This document shows, piece after piece, positions 4,386 through 58,462 of a DNA stretch of 64,000 nucleotides. The stretch comes from Ignavibacteriota bacterium (lineage in GTDB: Bacteria; Bacteroidota; Ignavibacteria; UBA10030). Below the pieces are notes generated by a model. The model had not been told where the DNA came from. It saw nothing but the letters and a program-made list of their open reading frames with translations, and did not search any database. The DNA is taken from contig CAVSHO010000007.1 in NCBI GenBank assembly GCA_963727825.1, positions 192,001 to 256,000 of the forward strand, read 5' to 3'. A program made the translations under genes and the position numbers. Position 1 is the stretch's first letter; each line of letters opens with the position of its first letter.

Positions 4386-5913
4386 ATGATCGATTCAATT
4401 AAAATAATCGAAAACGGATTAGTTTTTACGTGGTGACAAACAAAATCGCGCTGGGAAACTCACGCTCATAATTCAGAACGGCCGTATTATCGAGATTGGC
4501 AAGCGCGCTGATGCTCTCAAGGCGACATATCCGAATGCCGAAGTTATTGATACCGCGGGAAAAATTATTTTGCCGGGATTCGTAGATGCGCATCATACGG
4601 GTGAATCGTTTATCTTGCGATATTTAACATCCGGTCAGCCGATGTCGAGATGGAATAAGACCCCGATCATCAGCCGCGCTAATGATTATTTACGCAAGGA
4701 AGCCACATTCCAGGAATTCTTAACCCTTTACCGATTGTCATATTATGCCGCGCTCAAATCCGGTGTAACAACATTGTCAGAATATGGCATCGATAATCTT
4801 GAACATTCTTTTACAGCATCACTCGAAGCAATGCAGCAAACGAATCAAAGAGGTTTTATCGGCTTGCATAATGGCGATCAGATTGAAGCGGCTCGTAAGC
4901 AGCACGAATCTTCAATTCGTTTCGCTTTTGTTATCACCGATGAAGAAAATCTTACAACTTACAATCTTCAATCAAGTATTCGTTCAGCGCGTGAACTTCA
5001 ATGGCCGGTAATATTGCATTTGGGCCAAACCCGGCAGGCATTTAATATTGTGAAGAAAAATTTCAATAAATCCATTGCCCAATTATATGCCGAATATAGA
5101 GCGATTGACTCGCCGGCGCATCTACTTCATCTCTCATGTTTTGAGGATGGAGATTTTGAAATCATTGCGAAGTCTGGTACGCCATTGGTATATTCGCCAT
5201 CGGCAATTCTTCAGAAGGGAACAGAAATCCCGCCATTCGAAGAATTACTCAAATACAAAATTATGCTCGCATTTGGTACCGATTGGGGAATTGCAAAGCC
5301 GTTAGAGAATATTCAATCCTATTGTTCTATTCTTAAAACGCTCGGTTTGCCGGATGAACGGGCGTACGATTTACTTGCTCTTCACACAAAAAATGGAGCA
5401 TATGCACTTGGGCTTGATGCGGAAATTGGAACGATTGAAACGGGAAAGAAAGCCGATCTTGTTTTCCTTAATCTATCTGAGTTTCGTATGAATTCCATCC
5501 TTGCGGATGACAATGCTGAACAAATTCTTGAGATTGTTCTTCAAGAAGCCGCCTCACAACAGGTAAGCGACGTAATGATTAATGGCGAATTTTACATCCG
5601 TGAAGGACATGCTCTCACTTATTCAGAAGAAGATTTGGCAAGGGAAGGGCAAACAATTTTCAAAAAGTTATTATCTTTCCATAAACAAAAAACATCAGGT
5701 CTGCCATTGTCAGCCCCGATACTCAAGTTCTCTGAAAAACAAAAAAAAGAAAGTAAATCTTCTGAAGAGGATATGATTGCTAAAGAAGGATTTAGAATTG
5801 TTCGAAAGGAACGAACAACGTCTGCTCCGCAAGCAAAAGGTAATGCCTCGCATGAAACGGCTAAGGAACTTCCAAAGAATGTTAAGAAAATATTTGGTGA
5901 CGACGAAGAATAG
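4386..5913 (+). CDS. Amidohydrolase-superfamily protein (SsnA/MtaD-like), with an apparent +1 frameshift near 4430
   Basis: ATG at 4386 (MIDSIKIIENGLVFT) joins in another frame to ...IIQNGRIIEIG...DTAGKIILPGFVDAHHT...GTD...GAYALGL...GTIETGKKADLV. Confidence 0.75.
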
Positions 5914-25691: not shown

Positions 25692-27091
25692 ATGAACATT
25701 CAATTTCTAGGAGCTGCACGAACAGTCACCGGCTCAATGCATCTCGTCTCTGTGAATGGCACAAAAATCCTTCTCGACTGCGGTATGTTTCAAGGAAGGC
25801 GAGCAGAAGCGTATGAAAAGAATCGTAGTTTTCCATTCGATCCATCTAAAATTGATGCGGTCATTCTCTCGCATTCTCACATTGACCACGCTGGTAAACT
25901 TCCGAATCTTGTAAAGAATGGTTATCGACGGCCCTATTTATGCTACCTCGGCCGCACGCGATTTATGCAACATTATGTTGTACGATAGCGCTTACCTTCA
26001 AGAGCGGGACATTGAATATGTGAACAAGAAACACCAAAAAAGACATGAACCGCTTGTACAACATTTATATGATGTCGTAGATGTAACAAACGCTATGACG
26101 CAATTCATTAGCATTAATTACGAACAACAAGTGCAGGTTGCCAAGGGAGTGATGTTGAAATTTTTCGATGCCGGACATATTCTCGGTTCTGCTGTGACAG
26201 TGCTTGAAGTGGAAGAGAATGGTAAAAGGAAGAAAATCGGTTTCACGGGTGATTTGGGAAGGAAAGAATGCGCCGATTATTAGAGATCCACAACCAATTG
26301 GCAGCGTAGATGTATTAATTTCCGAAAGCACGTATGGCGGTAAATTACATGATCCAATAACCGGGATGAAGGATTCCTTATGCAAAGTCATCCAGCGAAC
26401 AGCTGATCGCGGCGGCAAAGTGATTGTGCCATCGTTCAGTGTCGGAAGGACACAGGAGATCGCATATCTTTTGTCAGAATTATTTGATGAAGGCAGATTA
26501 CCTGTTGTACCAATTTATGTCGACAGCCCGCTCGCAGTAAATGCAAGCGACATTTTCCGTTTGCATACCGAGTGTTTTGATCAAGAAACACTTGCTCATT
26601 TGCATGCGCATGAAGATCCTTTTGGTTTCAACAGGTTAACGTATGTGCGGTCGGTAGATGAATCAAAAAAATTGAATGATATGCATTCTCCGTGCGTTAT
26701 TATTTCAGCATCCGGAATGTGTGAAGGCGGAAGAATTGTGCACCATCTTGCCAACAACGTTGAAAATCCTAATAACACTATTCTGATATGCGGATATCAA
26801 GCGGAACATACGCTCGGCAGGCGAATAGTTGAGAAACAGCCAGAATTGAACATCTTTGGGGAAATACATAAACTAAATGCAGAAGTAGTAGTGTTAAATT
26901 CATTCTCCGCACATGCAGGTCAGGATGAATTAGTAGAGTATATTACAATGGCCGACCAAACTCAATTGAAGAAAATATTTCTTGTTCATGGTGAATTAGT
27001 GCAGATAGAAAAACTTTCTGCGAAGCTCAAAGAAACGGGTGTAAAAGAAGAGATTTGTATTCCCGTGACAGGAGAGAAGTTTGAAATATGA
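25692..27091 (+). CDS. MBL-fold beta-CASP ribonuclease (Ysh1-like), two apparent frameshifts (about 25927 and 26268)
   Basis: SHSHIDHAG, AGHILGS, FTGDLG, ESTYG, GRTQE, SASGM, FSAHA and VHGE spread across three ORFs. Confidence 0.9.
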
Positions 27092-36962: not shown

Positions 36963-39900
36963 ATGTTCAAGCAGTTAACAGACAAATTAAATTACCACGA
37001 ACTCGAATCAGAAATTCTGAAGTCCTGGGAAACGAACGACATTTTCAAAAAGAGTATCTCCACGCGTGAAGGGAAAGAGGAGTTCACTTTTTACGAAGGT
37101 CCGCCGACGGCAAACGGCCGCCCCGGTATTCATCATGTGATGGGTCGGACTCTGAAGGACATAATTTGCCGCTACAAGACGATGCAGGGATTTCAAGTAC
37201 ATCGCAAAGCAGGTTGGGATACACACGGCTTGCCGGTTGAAATAGAAGTGGAAAAATCGCTTGGTTTCAAACACAAAGATGACATTGTCGGTTACGGTGT
37301 GGCTAAGTTTAACGAAGAATGCAAGAAGTCGGTTTGGAAATATAAAACAGATTGGGAAGAATTGACGAAGATGATGGGCTACTGGGTTGACCTCCAGCAT
37401 CCGTATGTCACCTTCGAGAACAATTATATCGAATCCATTTGGTGGGCACTGAAGCAGTATTTCAACAAAGGTCTTATTTATAAAGGATACAAAATTCAGC
37501 CGTACTGCCCGCGATGTGAAACACCATTGTCATCCCACGAAGTTTCGCTTGGTTACAAAGATGTCAAAGATCCATCTGTCTATTTAAAATTGAAAGTGAA
37601 AGGGGAAGAGAATACTTTTTTCCTTGTCTGGACAACGACGCCATGGACATTGATCTCGAACGTCGCTATCGCTGTTCATCCTGAAATTGATTACGTGAAA
37701 GTTGAACATAAAGGTGAAAAATTAATTCTTGCCGAAGCACGTTTGTCTGTGCTTGGTGATGAATACGTTGAGCTGGAAAAATTCAAAGGCGCAGCGCTTG
37801 CCGGCAAAGAATACGAGCGAATGTATTCGTATCATCAAGTGAAAGAAAAAGGATGGTACGTCGTCCTCGCTGATTTTGTTACGACGGAAGACGGCTCCGG
37901 TATTGTTCATATGGCTCCGGCGTATGGCGAAGATGATTATCAAATTGGTAGGAAGTATGGTTTACCGACAATTCATCCGGTGAATAAATCAGGTGAGTTC
38001 AATTCTGAAGTCACCGATTTTGCCGGCATGTTTGTGAAAGATGCCGATCAGGAGATCATTCAAAATCTTCGTCATCGAAATATTCTCTACAAGAAGGAAA
38101 TGCATCTCCACAGTTATCCGCATTGCTGGCGGTGTTTGTCGCCGTTATTGTATTATGCGCGCGAATCGTGGTACATTCGCACTACCGAATATTCGAAACG
38201 AATGATCGAGATGAACAAACAGATCAATTGGATTCCACCGGAAGTCGGCGCCGGCAGATTCGGTAACTGGCTTGAAGACAATAAGGACTGGGCGCTTTCT
38301 CGCGATCGTTTCTGGGGAACACCGCTACCCATTTGGCTGTGCGAAAAATGCGGTAAACAAAAATGCATTGGCAATGTGGAAGAATACAGGAAAGGTGCGA
38401 ATGTTTCGGAGCCGCTGGATTTACATAAGCCGTATGTTGATAATGTAACGTTTGTATGCGACTGCGGCAGGCACAATGAAACGCACGCCTGAGCTTATAG
38501 ATGTATGGTTCGATTCCGGCTCAATGCCGTTCGCACAATGGCACTATCCATTCGAGAATAAGGAAAGATTTGAGAGGGTATATCCTGCCGATTTTATTTC
38601 TGAAGGCATCGATCAAACGCGCGGATGGTTTTATACATTACATGCCATCGGCACATTTCTTTTCGACAAACCGGCGTTCAAAAATGTGCTCGTCAACGAA
38701 CTTATTCTCGATAAGCAAGGACAGAAAATGTCCAAGTCGAAGAACAACACAGTTGACCCATTTGAACTGCTTAAAAAATACAGCGCTGACACGGTGCGTT
38801 GGTATTTGGTTTCGCAAAGCCCTGTATGGCGGCCTACGTTATTTGATTCAGAAGTAATAGGCGAAGTTCAGCGGAAATTCTTCAGCACGCTTGTGAATAC
38901 GTACTCCTTTTTTGCGCTCTATGCGAATGTGGATGGATTCAATAACGGCGAACTGAGAATTCCAACAAGCGATCGGCAGGAAATTGATCAGTGGATTTTG
39001 TCTGAGTTGAATTCACTTATAAAAAATTATAATCAATCGATGGAAGGGTATGATGTAACACGGGCTGCGAGAGCTGTAAGTGATTTCACGATTGATCAGC
39101 TTTCCAATTGGTACGTGCGCCGCAACCGGCGGCGTTTCTGGAAAAGTGAAAAAGGGAAAGATAAAACCGCGGCATATCAAACTTTACATGAATGTCTACT
39201 AACGATTAGCAAACTCATTGCTCCATTCGCCCCGTTTTTGTCGGATGAAATATATCACAATCTGATGATGGGAAATAAATCGGTGTTAGAGTCTGTTCAT
39301 CTTGAAACAATGCCGATGCCGAATTCGAGTATTATCAATTTGGAACTCGAGCATCGGATGGAATATGTAATCCGGATAGTCGGACTTGTGCGGGCCATGC
39401 GGATGAAATCAAATTTAAAAGTTCGCCAGCCTCTTCAGAAAATTATTCTGCCGGTAAAATCCGAAGCAGATCGGAAAGAAATAGCATTGATGGAAGATGT
39501 GATTCTTGAAGAAATAAATGTTAAACAGATTGAATACGTCGCAGATGAATCTGCTATCATTAAAAAGAAATCAAAACCGAACTTTAAATCTCTTGGTCCA
39601 AAGTTTGGTAAATCAGTCCAACCGATAGCAGCTAGATTGCGTGAATTGACAGCCGAAGAAATTACCATGCTCCAATCGCAAGGAACTCTTTTGTTAAGAG
39701 TTGACGGCAAAGATTACACGATAGATACAAACGATGTGGAAATATTACACGAAGATATTCAAGGCTGGTTAGTTGAAACCGATGGCTCGCTGACAGTTGC
39801 GTTGGATACAGCTTTGACAGATGCACTCATCGACGAGGGGCTGGCGCGTGAATTTGTGAATCGAGTACAAAACCTGCGGAAAGATTCAGGTTTTGAAGTA

Positions 39901-40095
39901 ATAGATCGGATTCATATTCAGCATGCATCTTCAGAGCGCTTAACCAAAGCGCTGAACCGTATGACAGAATATGTGAAGCAAGAAACATTGGCAATTGATC
40001 TTCAGACAATCTCTAAAGAAGATGCCCAGAAACTTACAATAAAAAGTGAAGATATTAATGGTGAACAAAGTTTAATTGCAGTTGTGAGAATTTAG
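36963..40095 (+). CDS. ileS: Isoleucine--tRNA ligase, type 2; frameshift near 38469 (probable sequencing error)
   Basis: EGPPTANG, GIHH, GWDTHGLP, WTTTPWTL, SRDRFWGTP, DVWFDSG, KMSKS. Confidence 0.97.
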
Positions 40096-45509: not shown

Positions 45510-45621
45510 GAGCCGGAGGCCAGAAAATGTCACGAAACTATTCGTGTCAATCTTATATGATGATTTATTTTATATGGAAGACCAACCATTCCCTCTTTCG
45601 TGTTAATTCGTGCGTAAGAGA
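45510..45621 (+). repeat. GAGCCGG-GGCC mini-element, copy A
   Basis: Similar to 46181-46295 over about 115 bp. The first 42 nt match copy B at 35/42 and copy C at 38/42. Confidence 0.75.
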
Positions 45622-45681
45622 GTACTTTGAAGAACGAAGAAATTAACTAAACACCGAGAATTAATATTATGCGAGAGGACC

Positions 45682-46152
45682 ATGAAAACCATTAAACGTA
45701 TTGCATTAGTAGCACACGACAACCGGAAGAAGGATCTGACCGAATGGGTTGAATGGAATTGGAATGCTCTATTGAACCACAAACTGATATGCACGGGAAC
45801 TACAGGCAGTATGGTCGAAGCTGTATTGAGGAAAAAATTGGACAAAGATCAAAAAAAGAAGATTGATATCAGGAAACTCAAATCCGGACCGCTCGGGGGT
45901 GACCAACAGCTCGGTGCACTTATAGCAGAAGGAGAGGTCGATATGATCATCTTTTTGTGGGACCCGATGGAACCGCAGCCGCATGATGTCGATGTCAAAG
46001 CACTACTCAGGATAGCCGTGCTTTATAATGTGCCGACCGCTTGCAATCGCTCGACCGCCGATTTCATGATCTCTTCATCTCTGTTCACCTCGGAGTACGC
46101 TCCCGCTCTTGTGGATTTTTCCGAGTATATTCGCAGAGAAATAAAATTTTGA
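45682..46152 (+). CDS. mgsA: Methylglyoxal synthase
   Basis: IALVAHD, TGTTG, SGPLGGDQQ, PHDVDVKALLR. Confidence 0.97.
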   Translation: MKTIKRIALVAHDNRKKDLTEWVEWNWNALLNHKLICTGTTGSMVEAVLRKKLDKDQKKKIDIRKLKSGPLGGDQQLGALIAEGEVDMIIFLWDPMEPQPHDVDVKALLRIAVLYNVPTACNRSTADFMISSSLFTSEYAPALVDFSEYIRREIKF

Positions 46153-46180
46153 GGCGACCGGGCTGGCGACATAGATGTGA

Positions 46181-46295
46181 GAGCCGGCGGCCTAAAAATG
46201 CTGCGAATCTATTCGTGTCAATTTTTTATGATATGATTTTTTTAATATGTAAGACTATCCGTCCCCTCTTTCTCGTTAATTCTTATGTGAGAGGA
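46181..46295 (+). repeat. GAGCCGG-GGCC mini-element, copy B
   Basis: Direct repeat of 45510-45621. The two copies bracket mgsA. Confidence 0.75.
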
Positions 46296-46351
46296 GATTT
46301 ATAAAATCCTTTTTTAATGCTGAAAAGTAATCTTTGCATTCAAGAAACAAT

Positions 46352-46813
46352 GTCCCCTCTTGAGAGGGGACCACAGGGGTGTGTGGAAAAGGTTGGCAAT
46401 GGAAGATCGATGGATTCACTATAATCCAAGACTTAAGCAAATTGCCCTAACATTGCGGAAGAATATGACATTGTCAGAAATTCTTCTGTGGCAGCAATTA
46501 AAGAATAAACAATTGATGGGATATGATTTTCATAGGCAGAAGCCGATTGATGAATATGTAGTGGATTTTTATTGTCCTCTATTGAAATTAGTTCTCGAGA
46601 TCGATGGTGATTCGCATGATGGAAAGGAAGAGGCGGATCGAATCAGACAAGAGAAATTGGAATCGTTGGGATTGACAGTGATGCGGTTCTGGGATTCTGA
46701 TGTGAAGAGCAATGTTGACGGAGTGGTCGGACAATTGCGGGAATGGATTGAAGCTCAAATAACACACCCCTAAATCCCCTCTCATCTTGTTTAGGTCTTA
46801 TGTAAGAGGGGAC
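46352..46813. mobile_element. Candidate DUF559 module bounded by inverted REP-like repeats
   Basis: Left GTCCCCTCTTGAGAGGGGACCACAGGGGTGTGT. Right ACACACCCCTAAATCCCCTCTCA[20 nt]AGAGGGGAC. Confidence 0.6.
46399..46773 (+). CDS. DUF559 (Vsr-like PD-(D/E)xK) endonuclease domain protein
   Basis: LRKNMTLSE..LW..L, FHRQKPI..YVVDFYC..KLVLEIDGDSH..D..RQ..LE..G..V.RF. Confidence 0.92.
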   Translation: MEDRWIHYNPRLKQIALTLRKNMTLSEILLWQQLKNKQLMGYDFHRQKPIDEYVVDFYCPLLKLVLEIDGDSHDGKEEADRIRQEKLESLGLTVMRFWDSDVKSNVDGVVGQLREWIEAQITHP

Positions 46814-46817
46814 TTTT

Positions 46818-47110
46818 ATCGACGGGAAGCTATCTGACATCGACGCGGAGTCATCTGACAACAGCGCGAAGCAGTTAGACAATGGCGCGGAGTAGTTTGA
46901 CGGTCACACGAAGCGGTTTGACAATGCCACGGAGCAGTTAGACAATCGTGCGGAGTACTTTGACGGGGAAGAAATGTCAGGTGACAATGACGCGAAGTCA
47001 GTTTACACTTGCGCGGAGCCGTCTGACATTGTAACAATTTTAAAAGTTAAGCAGAAAAGTACTTTGACGATGCCGCGGAGTGATTCGACGGAGAAGAAAT
47101 GCCAAATACA
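46818..47110. repeat. Degenerate 21-bp-period tandem array (10 clean units plus about 4 degraded)
   Basis: Units such as ATCGACGCGGAGTCATCTGAC, AATGGCGCGGAGTAGTTTGAC, AATGCCACGGAGCAGTTAGAC. Conserved CGRAG and terminal GAC. Confidence 0.9.
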
Positions 47111-47138
47111 GCAAGAAAATAGCTATTTGCAAAAGCGA

Positions 47139-47253
47139 TGTATGGCTTTTGTAGGGACGTTTAATTAAACGTCCCTACACGTGACTCTTGATTCTTGGCT
47201 GATTACTCGCTACAATTTTTACGAGAAGCGTGTTGGGGAAACATTGCTTACCA
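47139..47253 (+). repeat. Composite direct repeat 1 (28-bp GTAG palindrome plus double hairpin)
   Basis: GTAGGGACGTTTAATTAAACGTCCCTAC at 47151-47178. The 49-nt segment 47205-47253 matches 48096-48144 at 46/49. Confidence 0.85.
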
Positions 47254-47330
47254 CCGATTTTTTCTTTGAACTTACACCAGAGGAATATGCAGCTTTAAGG
47301 TACCAATTGGGGACATTAAAGAGCGCTTGA
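47254..47330 (+). pseudogene. Internal fragment of a second ORF6N-domain gene
   Basis: Reads DFFFELTPEEYAALRYQLGTLK, equivalent to DFAFQLKLEE...MRSQIVTASK of the neighbouring gene. Confidence 0.6.
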
Positions 47331-47398
47331 AATACAGTTATGGAGATATCACGAAATGTGATATCCTCGAGTTCTTAAAATAAAGTAATGAGTATGTT

Positions 47399-48012
47399 AT
47401 GACAAAAACGATCTACAAATATTCTGAATCGATTGAACAACATATTTTTTTTATTCGGGGGATGCGAGTAATTCTTGATAGCGACCTCAGTGCTATTTAT
47501 GGCGTAAAAACGAAAGTGTTGAACCAAGCAGTAAAAAGGAACACGCTCAGAAGATATTGACACGAATAGATTCGTGATATTATCAGGCCTCCGGCTCCGC
47601 TGATTTTGCATTTCAATTGAAGCTAGAAGAAATTGCAGCCATAGACAATCAGCGTGGTATGCGGTCACAAATTGTGACCGCATCAAAACGCAACATTCGG
47701 TTTCTACCGTTTGTGTTTACCGAGCACGGCGCTTTAATGGCTTCAAACATATTGAAAAGTACACGTGCTCTTTCAATGAGCATTTATGTCGTTAGGGCAT
47801 TTATTCGTTTGCGCGAAACACTTGCTCTCCATAAAGATTTGGCACAGAAATTATCGGAATTAGAGCGAAAGGTTCAATCACACGATACAGAACTTCAAGC
47901 TATTGTCCATGCATTGCGTCAACTAATGGAGCCGCCCGAAAAACCAAAGCGCGAAATCGGTTTCCATGTAAAAGAAACATCGGCAAAATATGGAGTGAAA
48001 AGGCAAAAATAA
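47399..48012 (+). pseudogene. ORF6N-domain DNA-binding protein interrupted by an insertion of about 46 bp
   Basis: IRGMRVILDSDL..YGVKTKVLNQAVKRN | insertion 47552-47597 | DFAFQL..RSQIVT..PFVFTEHG..VVRAF..KREIGF. Confidence 0.85.
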
Positions 48013-48038: not shown

Positions 48039-48144
48039 TGTATTGCCTTTGTAGAGACGTTTAATTAAACGTCTCTACTTGATTCTCATCTTTTAACTCG
48101 CTACCATTTTTGCGAGAAGCGTGTTGGGGAAACATCGCTTACCA
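48039..48144 (+). repeat. Composite direct repeat 2
   Basis: GTAGAGACGTTTAATTAAACGTCTCTAC at 48051-48078 plus the shared 49-nt hairpin segment. Confidence 0.85.
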
Positions 48145-48377: not shown

Positions 48378-49334
48378 ATGGCAAAGACCAAACAGAAAAA
48401 AAGAATCCGATCTAAGGCAAAAAGACAGAATTCTGTAAAACTCCGAGTTGCCGAACAACAAGCAGTGTATAATACTAAGACCTCTTCTACTCAATCGAAA
48501 CTGCCACTTGATACAATAATATGTGGAGATGCGCTTGAAGTTCTCAAGAGTCTTCCTGATCATTTTATCGATCTTATAGTAACTTCTCCACCTTATGCAG
48601 ACAAAAGAACAACTTCGTATGGCGGAATACACCCAGATAAATATGTCCAATGGTTCTTACCTATTGCAAGTGAACTTAAAAGGGTGTTGAAACCATCGGG
48701 CTCATTTATTCTCAATATCAAAGAAGGTGTGTCTGAAGGTGAACGACAAACATATGTTCTTGAATTGATTCTCGCATTGAAGAAACAAGGATGGCTTTGG
48801 ACAGAAGAATATGTTTGGCACAAAAAGAATAGTTATCCAGGAAAGTGGCCTAATCGATTTAGAGATGCATGGGAACATTGTCTCCATTTCAATAAAGAAA
48901 AGAAATTTGCAATGTACCAAGAGACTGTTAGAGTGCCAATGGGCGATTGGGCAAAGACGCGGCTAAAAAAACTTAGCGAAACAGATAAAAGGCGCGATGA
49001 ATCAAAAGTTGGTAGCGGTTTTGGAAAAAATATTTCTAACTGGATAGGAAGACAATTGGCTTACCCAGACAATGTACTCCATTTAGCGACAGAATCTTCA
49101 AATACGAACCACAGTGCAGCGTTCCCAACGTCTTTACCAGAATGGTTCATTAAATTATTTACAAAACCTGGAGATATTATTCTTGACCCTTTTCTTGGAT
49201 CAGGTAGTACCGCAGTCGCCGCAAAAAGGACTGGAAGAAGATATATCGGAATTGAGATTTTAAAGGAATTTTCTCAAATAGCAGAACAACGAGTTAAAAA
49301 AGAACATTCCGACAATGGAGAATTGTTCAAATGA
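48378..49334 (+). CDS. Beta-class DNA amino-methyltransferase, probably N4-cytosine
   Basis: TSPPY (motif IV) precedes DPFLGSGST (motif I); HSAAFP. Confidence 0.93.
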   Translation: MAKTKQKKRIRSKAKRQNSVKLRVAEQQAVYNTKTSSTQSKLPLDTIICGDALEVLKSLPDHFIDLIVTSPPYADKRTTSYGGIHPDKYVQWFLPIASELKRVLKPSGSFILNIKEGVSEGERQTYVLELILALKKQGWLWTEEYVWHKKNSYPGKWPNRFRDAWEHCLHFNKEKKFAMYQETVRVPMGDWAKTRLKKLSETDKRRDESKVGSGFGKNISNWIGRQLAYPDNVLHLATESSNTNHSAAFPTSLPEWFIKLFTKPGDIILDPFLGSGSTAVAAKRTGRRYIGIEILKEFSQIAEQRVKKEHSDNGELFK

Positions 49335-50070
49335 AACAAATATCTTTAAAGGAAGTAACGAGATTTGTCAGTGAAAATATTGGCGAATTCCATGAAAGCA
49401 GAGTTAACAGAATTAAAAAGGTCAAACTCAAACAAGTACTACAGAAAAAGAATCCATATTTATTTAAAGCAAAAAACCTCCTTACTGCAGAAAAGCTTGT
49501 TGAATCTATTCTTCAAGCATACCTTTCTTCATCGGAAGAAGAACTTTTCGGTGAGTTTCTTGAGAACCTTGCTATTTTTATTGCAAACAAAACGCTTGGT
49601 GGAAGAAAAGCCCATGGGTCTGGAATTGATTTAGAATTTGAACGTTCTAAAGTCGTATATCTTGTTTCTATAAAATCAGGTGTAAACTGGGGAAACAGTT
49701 CTCAATATAAAGCTCTTAGAGATAATTTTAAAAAGCTGTACAAATATTAAAACAATCAAGGTCGATCAAGACAGTTCAACCGGTGCTGGCATCTTGCTAT
49801 GGCAAGAAAAAAACAAAAGACAATGGGGAATATTTAAGCGTTTGTGGACAAGAATTTTGGTACTTCATTAGTGGTAATAAAAACCTTTACACCGACATTA
49901 TTGAACCACTCGGATACGAAGCCAAGCAACATAATCAACATTACGAAGAAGAACGTGCTGTTCTAATAAACAATTTCACCACAGAATTCTCAAAAGAATT
50001 TTGCGTTACTGGGAGAATTAATTGGAAAAAGCTAGTTCAATTTAATAGCGGCAATTTAGAAGTAGATTAA
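49331..50070 (+). CDS. Type II restriction endonuclease, EcoO109I/PmeII-like; frameshift near 49733
   Basis: KKNPYLF, SSSEE..FG.FLE.LAIF, GIDLEF..SIKSG.NWGNSSQ, CYG, CGQEFWYFISG. Overlaps the MTase stop (ATGA). Confidence 0.8.
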
Positions 50071-52505: not shown

Positions 52506-53153
52506 ATGGCATTATACCAAAATACATATCGTATTGAATCTGCACGGCTGCAAACGTATGATTATGCGCAGGCAGGAGATTATTTTGTTACTCTCTGCGC
52601 TCATCGTCATAAATGCGTTTTTGGAGAGGTGCGGGGTGAAGAGATGCACCTCAATGAAATCGGAAAGATCGCTCAGCGTTGCTGGGAGGAAATTCCGAAG
52701 CATTTTCCAAACGTGGAATTGGACGCGTATGTTGTAATGCCCAATCATTTACATGGAATTATTATAATAAAAGATCATGGTAGAGACGTTCAATTGAACG
52801 TCTCTACAGAGGACGCGCTCGCGAACATTATACCTGATACAAATGCAGAATTATCGGAGAAAACACATGCATCAATCTCACCTTACAAGGGATCTCTTTC
52901 TGTTATCATCCGAACATTTAAAGCCGCGGTAACAACTCTCTGCCGGACGAACGGCTATCATCATCTCAGATGGCAATCACGATTCTATGATCACATTATT
53001 CGTGGTGATAAGGATATGGATAACGTGAGAAATTATATTCTACAGAAGCTGTTTAAACGGCCATTCATGAATAATCCGGCTGCGGACGAGATACACAACT
53101 ATGCCCGCTGTGACAACACAGATGCCGGCAGTCATGAACGCAGTACCTGTTGA
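52506..53153 (+). CDS. RAYT-like HUH transposase 2; native C-terminus lost after NYILQ and read-through into antisense permease sequence
   Basis: YRIESARL..YDY, VMPNHLHG, WQSRFYDHIIR, NYI. Contains the palindrome at 52780-52807. Confidence 0.88.
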   Translation: MALYQNTYRIESARLQTYDYAQAGDYFVTLCAHRHKCVFGEVRGEEMHLNEIGKIAQRCWEEIPKHFPNVELDAYVVMPNHLHGIIIIKDHGRDVQLNVSTEDALANIIPDTNAELSEKTHASISPYKGSLSVIIRTFKAAVTTLCRTNGYHHLRWQSRFYDHIIRGDKDMDNVRNYILQKLFKRPFMNNPAADEIHNYARCDNTDAGSHERSTC

Positions 53154-57700: not shown

Positions 57701-58462
57701 ATGAAATATTTAGTTCGTTTTACTGTCATTGCCGCGCTTGTGAGTGCATTCGTTTTCAGCTCGTTCGCGCAGGATCAAATGACAAAAGAAGAATGGCAGA
57801 AACAAATAACTGAAATGACTACCAAGCGGAATGATTTGAAAAATCAATTCGCTGGTCTGCAAAAAGAAGTTACTGATCTGCAAAAGCAAGATGCTGACAA
57901 AGCACAGGCATTAAAACAATGTCAGGATGCTCTGGCATCGTTACAAGGCAATCAGGTAGCTCCTTTGGTTGCGAAGGAGGATGCAATTGATGCACGTCTG
58001 AATGAATTATCACGTCTGTCAAATCAGGATCTATGGGCACGTAAAGCAGAGTTAGACAGTGTTCAAAATTGGATTAATGAAGCTCTGAAGGATCCAGTAA
58101 GCGCAATTCAAAAGTATCAAGAGCGCTTGAAGGATCAACAAAGCCGTCTTGATGCTTTAAAGAAGACTCTGGCTAATATTATTGCGACTGGTGAAGTAAT
58201 GCCGACCTACACAGTAGGTACTTGGGCAAAGGATCGAGACTGTTTATGGAATATTGCAAAGAAGCCAAAGATTTATGATAACCCATTCTTGTGGCCAAAG
58301 ATTTGGCAGGGTAATCGTGATCAGATTAAAAATCCTGACGTGATTAAAAAAGGTCAAAAGCTGAAAATTCCGCCAAAGGCAGATTTAACGAAGGAAGAAA
58401 AATCAGCTGTGCGTAAGTATTGGTCAAAGAAAAACGCAAAAGCGGCTGCAGCAAAACCATAA
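57701..58462 (+). CDS. Coiled-coil plus LysM peptidoglycan-binding protein
   Basis: YTV...DCLWNIA..IY..P.LWPKIW..N..QIKNPD.I..GQ.L.IP. Confidence 0.9.
   Translation: MKYLVRFTVIAALVSAFVFSSFAQDQMTKEEWQKQITEMTTKRNDLKNQFAGLQKEVTDLQKQDADKAQALKQCQDALASLQGNQVAPLVAKEDAIDARLNELSRLSNQDLWARKAELDSVQNWINEALKDPVSAIQKYQERLKDQQSRLDALKKTLANIIATGEVMPTYTVGTWAKDRDCLWNIAKKPKIYDNPFLWPKIWQGNRDQIKNPDVIKKGQKLKIPPKADLTKEEKSAVRKYWSKKNAKAAAAKP

Follow-up and report, generated by a model that had tools for sequence, protein, structure and literature searches.

The array of 21-nt units that follows the DUF559 gene in the 64-kb stretch of DNA analysed here (the window) is best read, with a probability of about one in three, as an orphan row of bipartite protein-binding sites on duplex DNA, iteron- or centromere-like in layout, whose partner is encoded elsewhere. 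Its asymmetric bipartite units stand in direct tandem and in helical phase, as in iterons and partition arrays, and it is this geometry that favors protein binding to duplex DNA. The first-pass annotation had offered three options: a two-helical-turn protein-binding array, a processed small or guide RNA array for the adjacent nuclease, and a decayed heptad-repeat gene. The first of these survives as the best reading, on account of the period, the orthology between units, the slower change of the conserved blocks and the phasing. The evidence comes from two DNA copies of the array and one copy at the protein level.

The main array (46819..47028, plus strand) is made up of ten units set head to tail, each exactly 21 nt long and without an indel. 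Self-identity is 0.62 at a lag of 21 nt and 0.57 and 0.62 at lags of 42 and 63, against 0.18–0.33 at all other lags up to 69, and the top lag-21 values of any 210-nt stretch in the window belong to stretches that overlap the array. Tandem Repeats Finder (TRF) reports period 21 at 46818-46872 and at 46857-46955, and a 2.5-unit pattern of the two conserved blocks has five matches in the array (four exact and one with one mismatch) against none in 100 shuffles. The ten exact units described at first pass are thus borne out by lag identity, TRF and shuffles alike. What is constant in these units is little. The consensus of 33 units, taken from the window and from its relative L073 (below), is a-y-g-a-C-R-C-R-R-A-G-y-n-r-T-y-T-G-A-C-R, in which a first block, CRCGRAG, and a second, TyTGACR, of 7 nt each, are separated by variable stretches of 3 and 4 nt. 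G11 is present in 33/33 units and C20 in 32/33. The two conserved blocks that had been noted earlier are indeed there, CGRAG in 9 of the 12 window units and GAC in 11 of the 12, and the plus strand of the array is purine-rich. Pairs of window units are nevertheless only 29–86% identical (mean 60%), and the earlier remark that no two units are identical now extends to 33 of 33 units over both arrays. CRISPR arrays have near-identical repeats of at least 23 nt that alternate with unique spacers; here, by contrast, the whole unit is only 21 nt and holds no invariant repeat longer than 3 nt, as expected from the earlier statement that the array is unlike CRISPR.

The array has recognizable ends. 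On the left it is bounded by a hairpin (46778..46816, plus strand; CCCCTCT...AGAGGGG and then a T run) that is terminator-like for DUF559, and in L073 a palindrome and a T-rich run likewise stand directly ahead of the array. On the right, what had been described as about four decayed units is really made up of 20 AT-rich nt that do not form a unit (47029..47048), two distal units one base out of register (47049..47090) and a conserved, purine-rich tail of 45 nt that ends the array (47091..47135), all on the plus strand. The register shifts by one base in the AT-rich gap, and L073 has regular units at the equivalent place. The distal units belong to a direct-repeat family (D2), the first (47049-47069) being weak at 14.3 bits by PWM and the second (47070-47090) good at 21.2 bits. 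The tail is identical to L073 5284-5326 at about 30 of 43 positions in a global alignment, and tblastx matches window 47059-47130 to L073 5252-5323. It holds a Shine-Dalgarno-like GGAG and an ATG, which open an ORF of 7 codons in the window and of 22 codons in L073. Unit 8 (46966-46986, plus strand) is aberrant in both genomes and is like the start of the tail. The right boundary, already outside the element, is a perfect 30-nt REP-like palindrome (47150..47179), one of three perfect or near-perfect occurrences of 28–30 nt, the others lying at 48050-48078 and 52780-52808. The first unit and the tail are common to the window and L073, and the array start is common to a third array, P0005, as well, which points to a discrete element with defined ends.

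With its degraded stretch, the window copy may itself be decaying. Two window housekeeping genes look frameshifted, and the one-base register slip at about 47049 may therefore be a single-base assembly error. The genes for isoleucyl-tRNA synthetase (36963-40095) and a metallo-beta-lactamase/beta-CASP protein (25918-27091) each appear as two overlapping ORFs in different frames, a pattern due either to genuine frameshifts or to single-base errors of assembly, and errors of that kind would also bear on the other "broken" genes of the window. Some distance upstream of the array, the stretch 45612-45650, which comes right after the hairpin of the upstream copy of an intergenic element, resembles array unit 7 followed by the tail-like unit 8, but scores below 10 bits by PWM and may be a chance resemblance.

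The second DNA copy was found by scanning the 2.5-unit block pattern over one genome per species, which gave at least 120 loci, the window's own genome not being among those listed. By blastn, one of the 120 listed loci is homologous to the window array. This locus, L073, is a 6.6-kb contig of a Bacteroidota MAG, and its array runs for 21 units, every one exactly 21 nt long and free of indels. (None of the other 119 listed loci is related to it; they hold (CGAAGAC)n microsatellites, GC-rich coding repeats, arrays from Nostoc and further 21-nt arrays from Bacteroidota.) Window units 1–10 align without gaps to L073 units 6–15 (4948-5157) at 73.8% identity, against 54–64% at the 11 other register offsets, and the nine variable columns taken alone are 60% identical in the orthologous register and 33–47% at the other offsets. 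Units within one array, on the other hand, are on average only 60% (window) or 57% (L073) identical. Orthologous units are thus more alike than paralogous ones, which means that there has been no concerted evolution, and the two arrays derive from one ancestral array whose units had already diverged. In slippage VNTRs the units are near-identical and homogenised within the array, and the array is in this respect their opposite, as the first reading of the sequence had held.

Outside the array and its tail, the two loci are unalike. No similarity beyond the array and its tail was found between the window and L073 by blastn or tblastx, at the DNA or the six-frame level. Upstream of the L073 array lie genes for an MFS transporter and a CN-hydrolase, and downstream REP-like elements and a GIY-YIG gene; in a Pfam scan of the six L073 ORFs, DUF559 and ORF6N were absent. 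On the earlier suggestion to look for such arrays with conserved neighboring genes, a homologous array exists among the loci listed, and the two arrays have no flanking genes in common. Unit number also differs, with 12 units in the window and 21 in L073. The third array, P0005, is known from a predicted 116-aa protein only (on two contigs) and aligns from the very start of the array. It was found by index-free HMMER over 1.84 billion representatives with an L073 plus-frame segment as the query, the plus frame being the only one searched in this way; five of the six matches are unrelated repetitive proteins. Used as a query in its turn, P0005 found only itself.

Is the sequence of the units under selection, or only inherited? 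In the orthologous alignment, the 12 conserved columns changed in 19/120 cells and the nine variable columns in 36/90 (Fisher p=1.2e-4), so that the two blocks changed 2.5 times less than the other columns, a comparison of ten unit pairs that is somewhat favored by the columns having been classed on the same units that were then compared. The difference persists without unit 8 (16/108 against 33/81). The variable columns differ at 40%, which places the two genomes far apart, and the 210 aligned nt, although 26% diverged, are free of indels, as are the 31 regular units (10 and 21) of the two arrays. From the slower change of the blocks and the absence of indels over these ten unit pairs, both the blocks and their spacing appear to be under purifying selection. 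These figures weigh on the possibility of a neutral satellite in decay, in which the units of an old tandem duplication drift apart and the apparent blocks stem from mutation bias or chance. Such drift could account for the degraded segment and the one-base register slip in the window copy, for the 12 units in one genome and 21 in the other, and for the company of the array, which is junk-rich DNA with REP-like palindromes and broken genes. It sits poorly with conserved columns that change more slowly, with spacing that is free of indels, and with an array kept in two genomes whose flanks share nothing alignable; a satellite origin is accordingly quite unlikely.

The spacing itself has a simple geometry. 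The information-weighted centers of the two blocks fall at columns 8.27 and 18.30, giving alternate spacings of 10.0 and 11.0 bp and a period of 21.0 bp, or two turns, so that the conserved bases face one side of B-DNA. This is a familiar arrangement. Plasmid iterons are direct tandem repeats of about 17–22 bp, or about two helical turns, each an asymmetric site that a two-domain protein can read on one face; each repeat takes up one protein unit, which reads two successive major grooves, and neighbors stack into a filament. The array is like them in that its repeats are direct, tandem and phased at two turns (exactly 21 nt in all 10 and 21 units). By definition, however, iterons come with an adjacent rep gene, an AT-rich unwinding region and DnaA boxes, and their units are nearly identical. 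Beside the array there is no rep gene, AT-rich unwinding region or DnaA-box cluster, its 12 to 21 units are about 60% identical, and it sits at a chromosomal site and has no plasmid match. No DnaA box (with at most one mismatch) lies in the array or tail, and the window total of 23 against 18 expected is at chance level.

Partition sites offer the other close parallel. The parC sites of R1 and pSK41 are tandem repeats upstream of the operon (PMC5016525), parH of TP228 has degenerate boxes arrayed with spacers (PMC3130281), and sopC of F has 12 direct repeats of 43 bp (PMC3177203). Like these sites, which assemble a continuous nucleoprotein complex, the array is a tandem row of direct repeats, but its unit length and motifs differ from theirs. 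Partition arrays lie upstream of an operon for ParA or ParM and the binding protein (PMC5016525), whereas no parA, parM or binding-protein gene adjoins the array; Pfam scans found no ParA, ParM, ParB or ribbon-helix-helix protein among 20 and 45 window ORFs or among the six L073 ORFs. A third precedent is the C repressor of phage P2, which recognizes non-palindromic direct repeats on one helix face (PMC2995052). In the array, as at the P2 sites, the repeats are direct, non-palindromic, spaced by two turns and set on one face of the helix; P2 has two such sites at a promoter, while the array has 12–21 and no gene start under their control. By its defining features the array fits no known family, yet it follows a known design. 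A limited set of literature searches found no description of such an array.

How might it work? Each unit would dock a single copy of a sequence-specific DNA-binding protein whose gene lies elsewhere in the genome; this protein could be a two-domain monomer or an asymmetric dimer in contact with two successive major grooves. Neighboring copies would stack cooperatively into a nucleoprotein filament of 200–440 bp, as happens at plasmid iterons and partition sites. The filament might serve to titrate the protein, to pair DNA or to mark the locus. What we infer is a constraint on duplex DNA, a bound protein and cooperativity in its binding. In support of a binding array, the period holds at exactly 21.0 nt even though paralogous units are only 57–60% alike and orthologous ones differ at 26% of sites. 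Several observations pull the other way. Candidate partner genes (Rep, ParA/ParM, ribbon-helix-helix, Nop) are absent near either array and among the 65 window ORFs scanned. The units of known iterons and partition sites are far less degenerate than those of the array. Finally, a PWM scan found no solitary site at 16 bits or more anywhere in the 64-kb window outside the array; at 10 bits or more there were 12 matches, against 5.2 (maximum 11) in 20 shuffles.

Could the array be what is left of a gene? It might be the relic of a heptad-repeat gene, read either in the plus frame x-A-[EK]-x-[FLS]-D-[ND] or in the minus frame C-Q-T-A-P-R-x. The period of 21 is divisible by three, four of the six frames of the consensus unit are open, and P0005 is a predicted plus-frame ORF of 116 aa that runs through the third array. 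Like real heptad-repeat coding sequences, the array has a translation (x-A-K/E-x-F/S-D-N) that matches heptad-repeat proteins, if weakly (E 8e-7 to 1e-3), and the column information in the window alone ranks minus-frame codon position 2 above 1 and 1 above 3. The frames of the window array are as first described, with stops in all three plus frames and one minus frame open (46816-47037, 73 aa) from a TTG start that, by eye, has no Shine-Dalgarno-like sequence ahead of it. In the second genome, however, this frame has four stops, and the frame that is open in L073 has two stops in the window; none of the six frames stays open through both arrays, since every one meets a stop in one of them or in both.

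The substitutions do not look like those of a gene either. The differences between orthologues fall 21/11/23 on the three codon phases (p=0.10), so that the six-frame analysis of codon-position bias proposed at first pass gives no third-position bias, and pN/pS ranges from 0.46 to 1.29 over the six frames, with the lowest value in a frame riddled with stops. The frame that looks most like a protein is x-A-K/E-x-F/S-D-N, and there the invariant G11 and C20 fall on third codon positions. This frame uses GAC and AAG/GAG exclusively, whereas in the window's 35 genes GAC makes up 21% of Asp codons and NAG 26% of Lys/Glu codons, a choice opposite to that of the host genes; its sole stop is TAG, a normal stop here that ends 9 of the 35. 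Word-based protein searches found no candidate homologue for the 73-aa window minus ORF, and 208 candidates but none at E<=0.01 for the 177-aa minus ORF of L073, while the plus-frame matches were, as noted, mostly to unrelated repetitive proteins. With no conserved frame, no synonymous bias and a codon choice foreign to the host, a heptad relic is highly unlikely and that reading is largely refuted; judged from the sequence comparisons, the array is not coding. Elsewhere in the window (57851-57897) there is a second, short 21-nt tandem repeat of 2.2 copies, inside an ORF (57701-58462) without a Pfam match, which is probably an ordinary coding heptad repeat.

The array could, alternatively, act as RNA: a non-coding plus-strand transcript serving as an unstructured scaffold or sponge, with some 10–20 evenly spaced bipartite motifs for an RNA-binding protein or multimer. 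The plus-strand purine bias (59% A+G) makes the composition strand-asymmetric and would also suit a strand-specific RNA or a single-strand role. In both genomes the array has a terminator-like hairpin immediately ahead of it and runs in the same direction as the genes on either side, its conserved purine-rich tail contains a possible hairpin, and the units have no predicted secondary structure, as in single-stranded sponge RNAs. (The predicted fold of 46775-47185, with z=-1.6 on the plus and z=-3.3 on the minus strand, owes its structure to the flanking hairpins, and none of it is periodic in units.) The signals of a transcription unit are missing, however. A promoter and terminator scan found no conserved promoter ahead of either array and no convincing intrinsic terminator 3' of the tail. 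The promoter-like matches inside the array arise from the repeat itself (TTGACA, 17 nt, GACAAT) and are not kept, with five in the window and one in L073. Rfam 15 at gathering score found only SRP RNA and a tRNA in the whole window, both elsewhere, and at E<=10 the region 46100-47500 had no match better than E=0.71 and nothing relevant. In addition, a fixed spacing of 21 nt is not, to our knowledge, a requirement of the known sponge RNAs. An RNA scaffold is on balance unlikely. A C-GNA-G mini-hairpin extended by columns 6 and 12 was considered and rejected, as these columns do not covary (GC 8, GT 10, AT 3 and unpairable 12, n=33).

Short conserved blocks, variable stretches and a strict period beside a nuclease-fold gene might also suggest a guide-RNA array, CRISPR- or TIGR-like, for the adjacent DUF559 nuclease. 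TIGR arrays are strictly periodic with weak overall sequence conservation (PMC12045711; bioRxiv 10.64898/2026.09.09.750476), and they are described as having a unit of about 36 nt, spacers of 9–12 nt between two alternating repeats of 8–12 nt, and an adjacent Nop-domain gene (PMC12045711). The array resembles them in its strict period, its two short conserved blocks set among variable stretches and its weak overall conservation. It departs from them in its 21-nt unit, its blocks of 7 and 7 nt, and variable stretches of 3–4 nt in place of the 9–12-nt TIGR spacers, and the columns that should vary are 60% conserved between the orthologous units of the two genomes. There is no Nop, Cas or other effector among the scanned ORFs, and L073 has an array with neither DUF559 nor ORF6N. 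A guide or small-RNA array for the adjacent nuclease, as put forward at first, thus finds no support; it is extremely improbable, and refuted as far as sequence can tell. A strict period together with a high turnover of sequence is not sufficient evidence of a guide-RNA array, and it is the unit-by-unit comparison with a second genome that separates the possibilities for arrays of this kind.

The surroundings of the array are those of an ordinary chromosome, with cysS, pyk, ileS, lspA, an acrB-like gene, RNase E/G, SRP RNA and a tRNA in the window. A replication origin or terminus was considered and dismissed, since the GC skew is positive across the whole window and there is no DnaA-box cluster. 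Within this chromosomal stretch, an MGS-domain gene (45682-46152) and a DinB-like gene flank a small island of selfish or defence genes in which the array lies. The island consists, from left to right, of DUF559 (46360-46773), the array, the REP-like palindrome, ORF6N remnants, an N6/N4 DNA methylase and a split EcoO109I-type endonuclease. DUF559 is bracketed by diverged direct copies of the hairpin (46263-46303 and 46778-46818, 71% identical). Because the hairpin is duplicated around it, the gene seems to have been inserted beside a pre-existing arrangement of hairpin and then array. This suggests that DUF559 is a later insertion between the duplicated hairpin copies, a neighbor of the array rather than its partner, and, together with the absence of DUF559 and ORF6N from L073, it leaves without support the earlier idea that the array and the DUF559 module form one system.

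The composition of the island invites a related explanation, that the array is the end or an internal site cluster of a mobile element that has lost its genes, with tandem sites at which its transposase, integrase or replication protein would bind. Such a cluster would be one form of protein binding, though its biology would differ. An element of this kind would be at home in two unrelated gene neighborhoods and would have defined ends, and the island, with DUF559, the ORF6N remnants, a restriction-modification pair and REP-like elements, is suitable company for it. Mu- and Tn7-type transposases bind bipartite sites of about 22 bp that are repeated at element ends. On the other hand, no inverted second array and no unit on the opposite strand turned up when the window was scanned by PWM, and no transposase, integrase or Rep gene lies nearby. 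The known mobile-element ends of which we are aware carry far fewer sites than the 10 to 21 contiguous ones here, and blastn in distant mode found no match to the array in 72,556 plasmid or 50,697 phage records. Remnant sites of a mobile element are therefore very unlikely, and an orphan array bound by a protein from elsewhere in the genome remains the preferred reading.

There are other repeats in and around the island. One copy of the REP-like palindrome lies inside an ORF (52506-53153) with a weak match to IS200-like Y1 transposases (E=0.007), and the palindromes and this ORF are possibly a REP/RAYT-type pair. The ORF6N gene (47399-48012) is split into two ORFs that match profile positions 2–38 and 53–86, and between the halves lies a palindromic element of about 42 nt (47556-47597), reverse-orientation copies of which occur at 45510-45551 and, in part, at 46204-46222. 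Direct repeats of about 110 nt with 91–94% identity (47139-47253 and 48039-48144), made up of the palindrome and downstream sequence, bracket the ORF6N gene, and 47181-47330, translated and inspected by eye, resembles a fragment of a second ORF6N-type gene. Farther right is the EcoO109I-type restriction-modification pair (48378-50070), in which the N6/N4 methylase is intact and the endonuclease falls into two ORFs, one (49331-49750) matching profile positions 2–132 and the other (49783-50070) positions 149–198. To the left, an intergenic element related to the hairpin copies around DUF559 (45533-45609) matches 46204-46282 at 82% and also follows the gene that precedes DUF559.

If the array is indeed bound by a protein, it is a phased binding array selected on a chromosome without replication or partition genes alongside, and with unusually degenerate units. 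The design principle of iterons and centromeres would then extend to an orphan chromosomal element, and the array would point to a further DNA-binding protein in a poorly studied lineage. A broader proposal, tentative and rather doubtful, is that these arrays form a new class of chromosomal cis-element in Bacteroidota-like bacteria: a selected, portable row of 12–21 degenerate bipartite 21-bp sites that would carry a one-faced filament of a trans-encoded protein, or else serve as a scaffold RNA with even spacing. The function of the row would differ from replication or partition of the carrier DNA and might, for example, be titration, DNA pairing or the marking of variable islands.

Arrays of exactly 21-nt units, apparently intergenic and unrelated to the one described here, occur in other Bacteroidota MAGs. 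Among the listed loci these are (in matched-strand coordinates) L077 5784-6047, L118 49-300, L089 252-356, L021 5994-6182, L094 126-440, L061 5973-6320 and L087 294-608. Some of them alternate two unit types, giving a super-period of 42 nt, and some have units that hold a small inverted repeat. Nostoc genomes share yet another family of 21-nt arrays.
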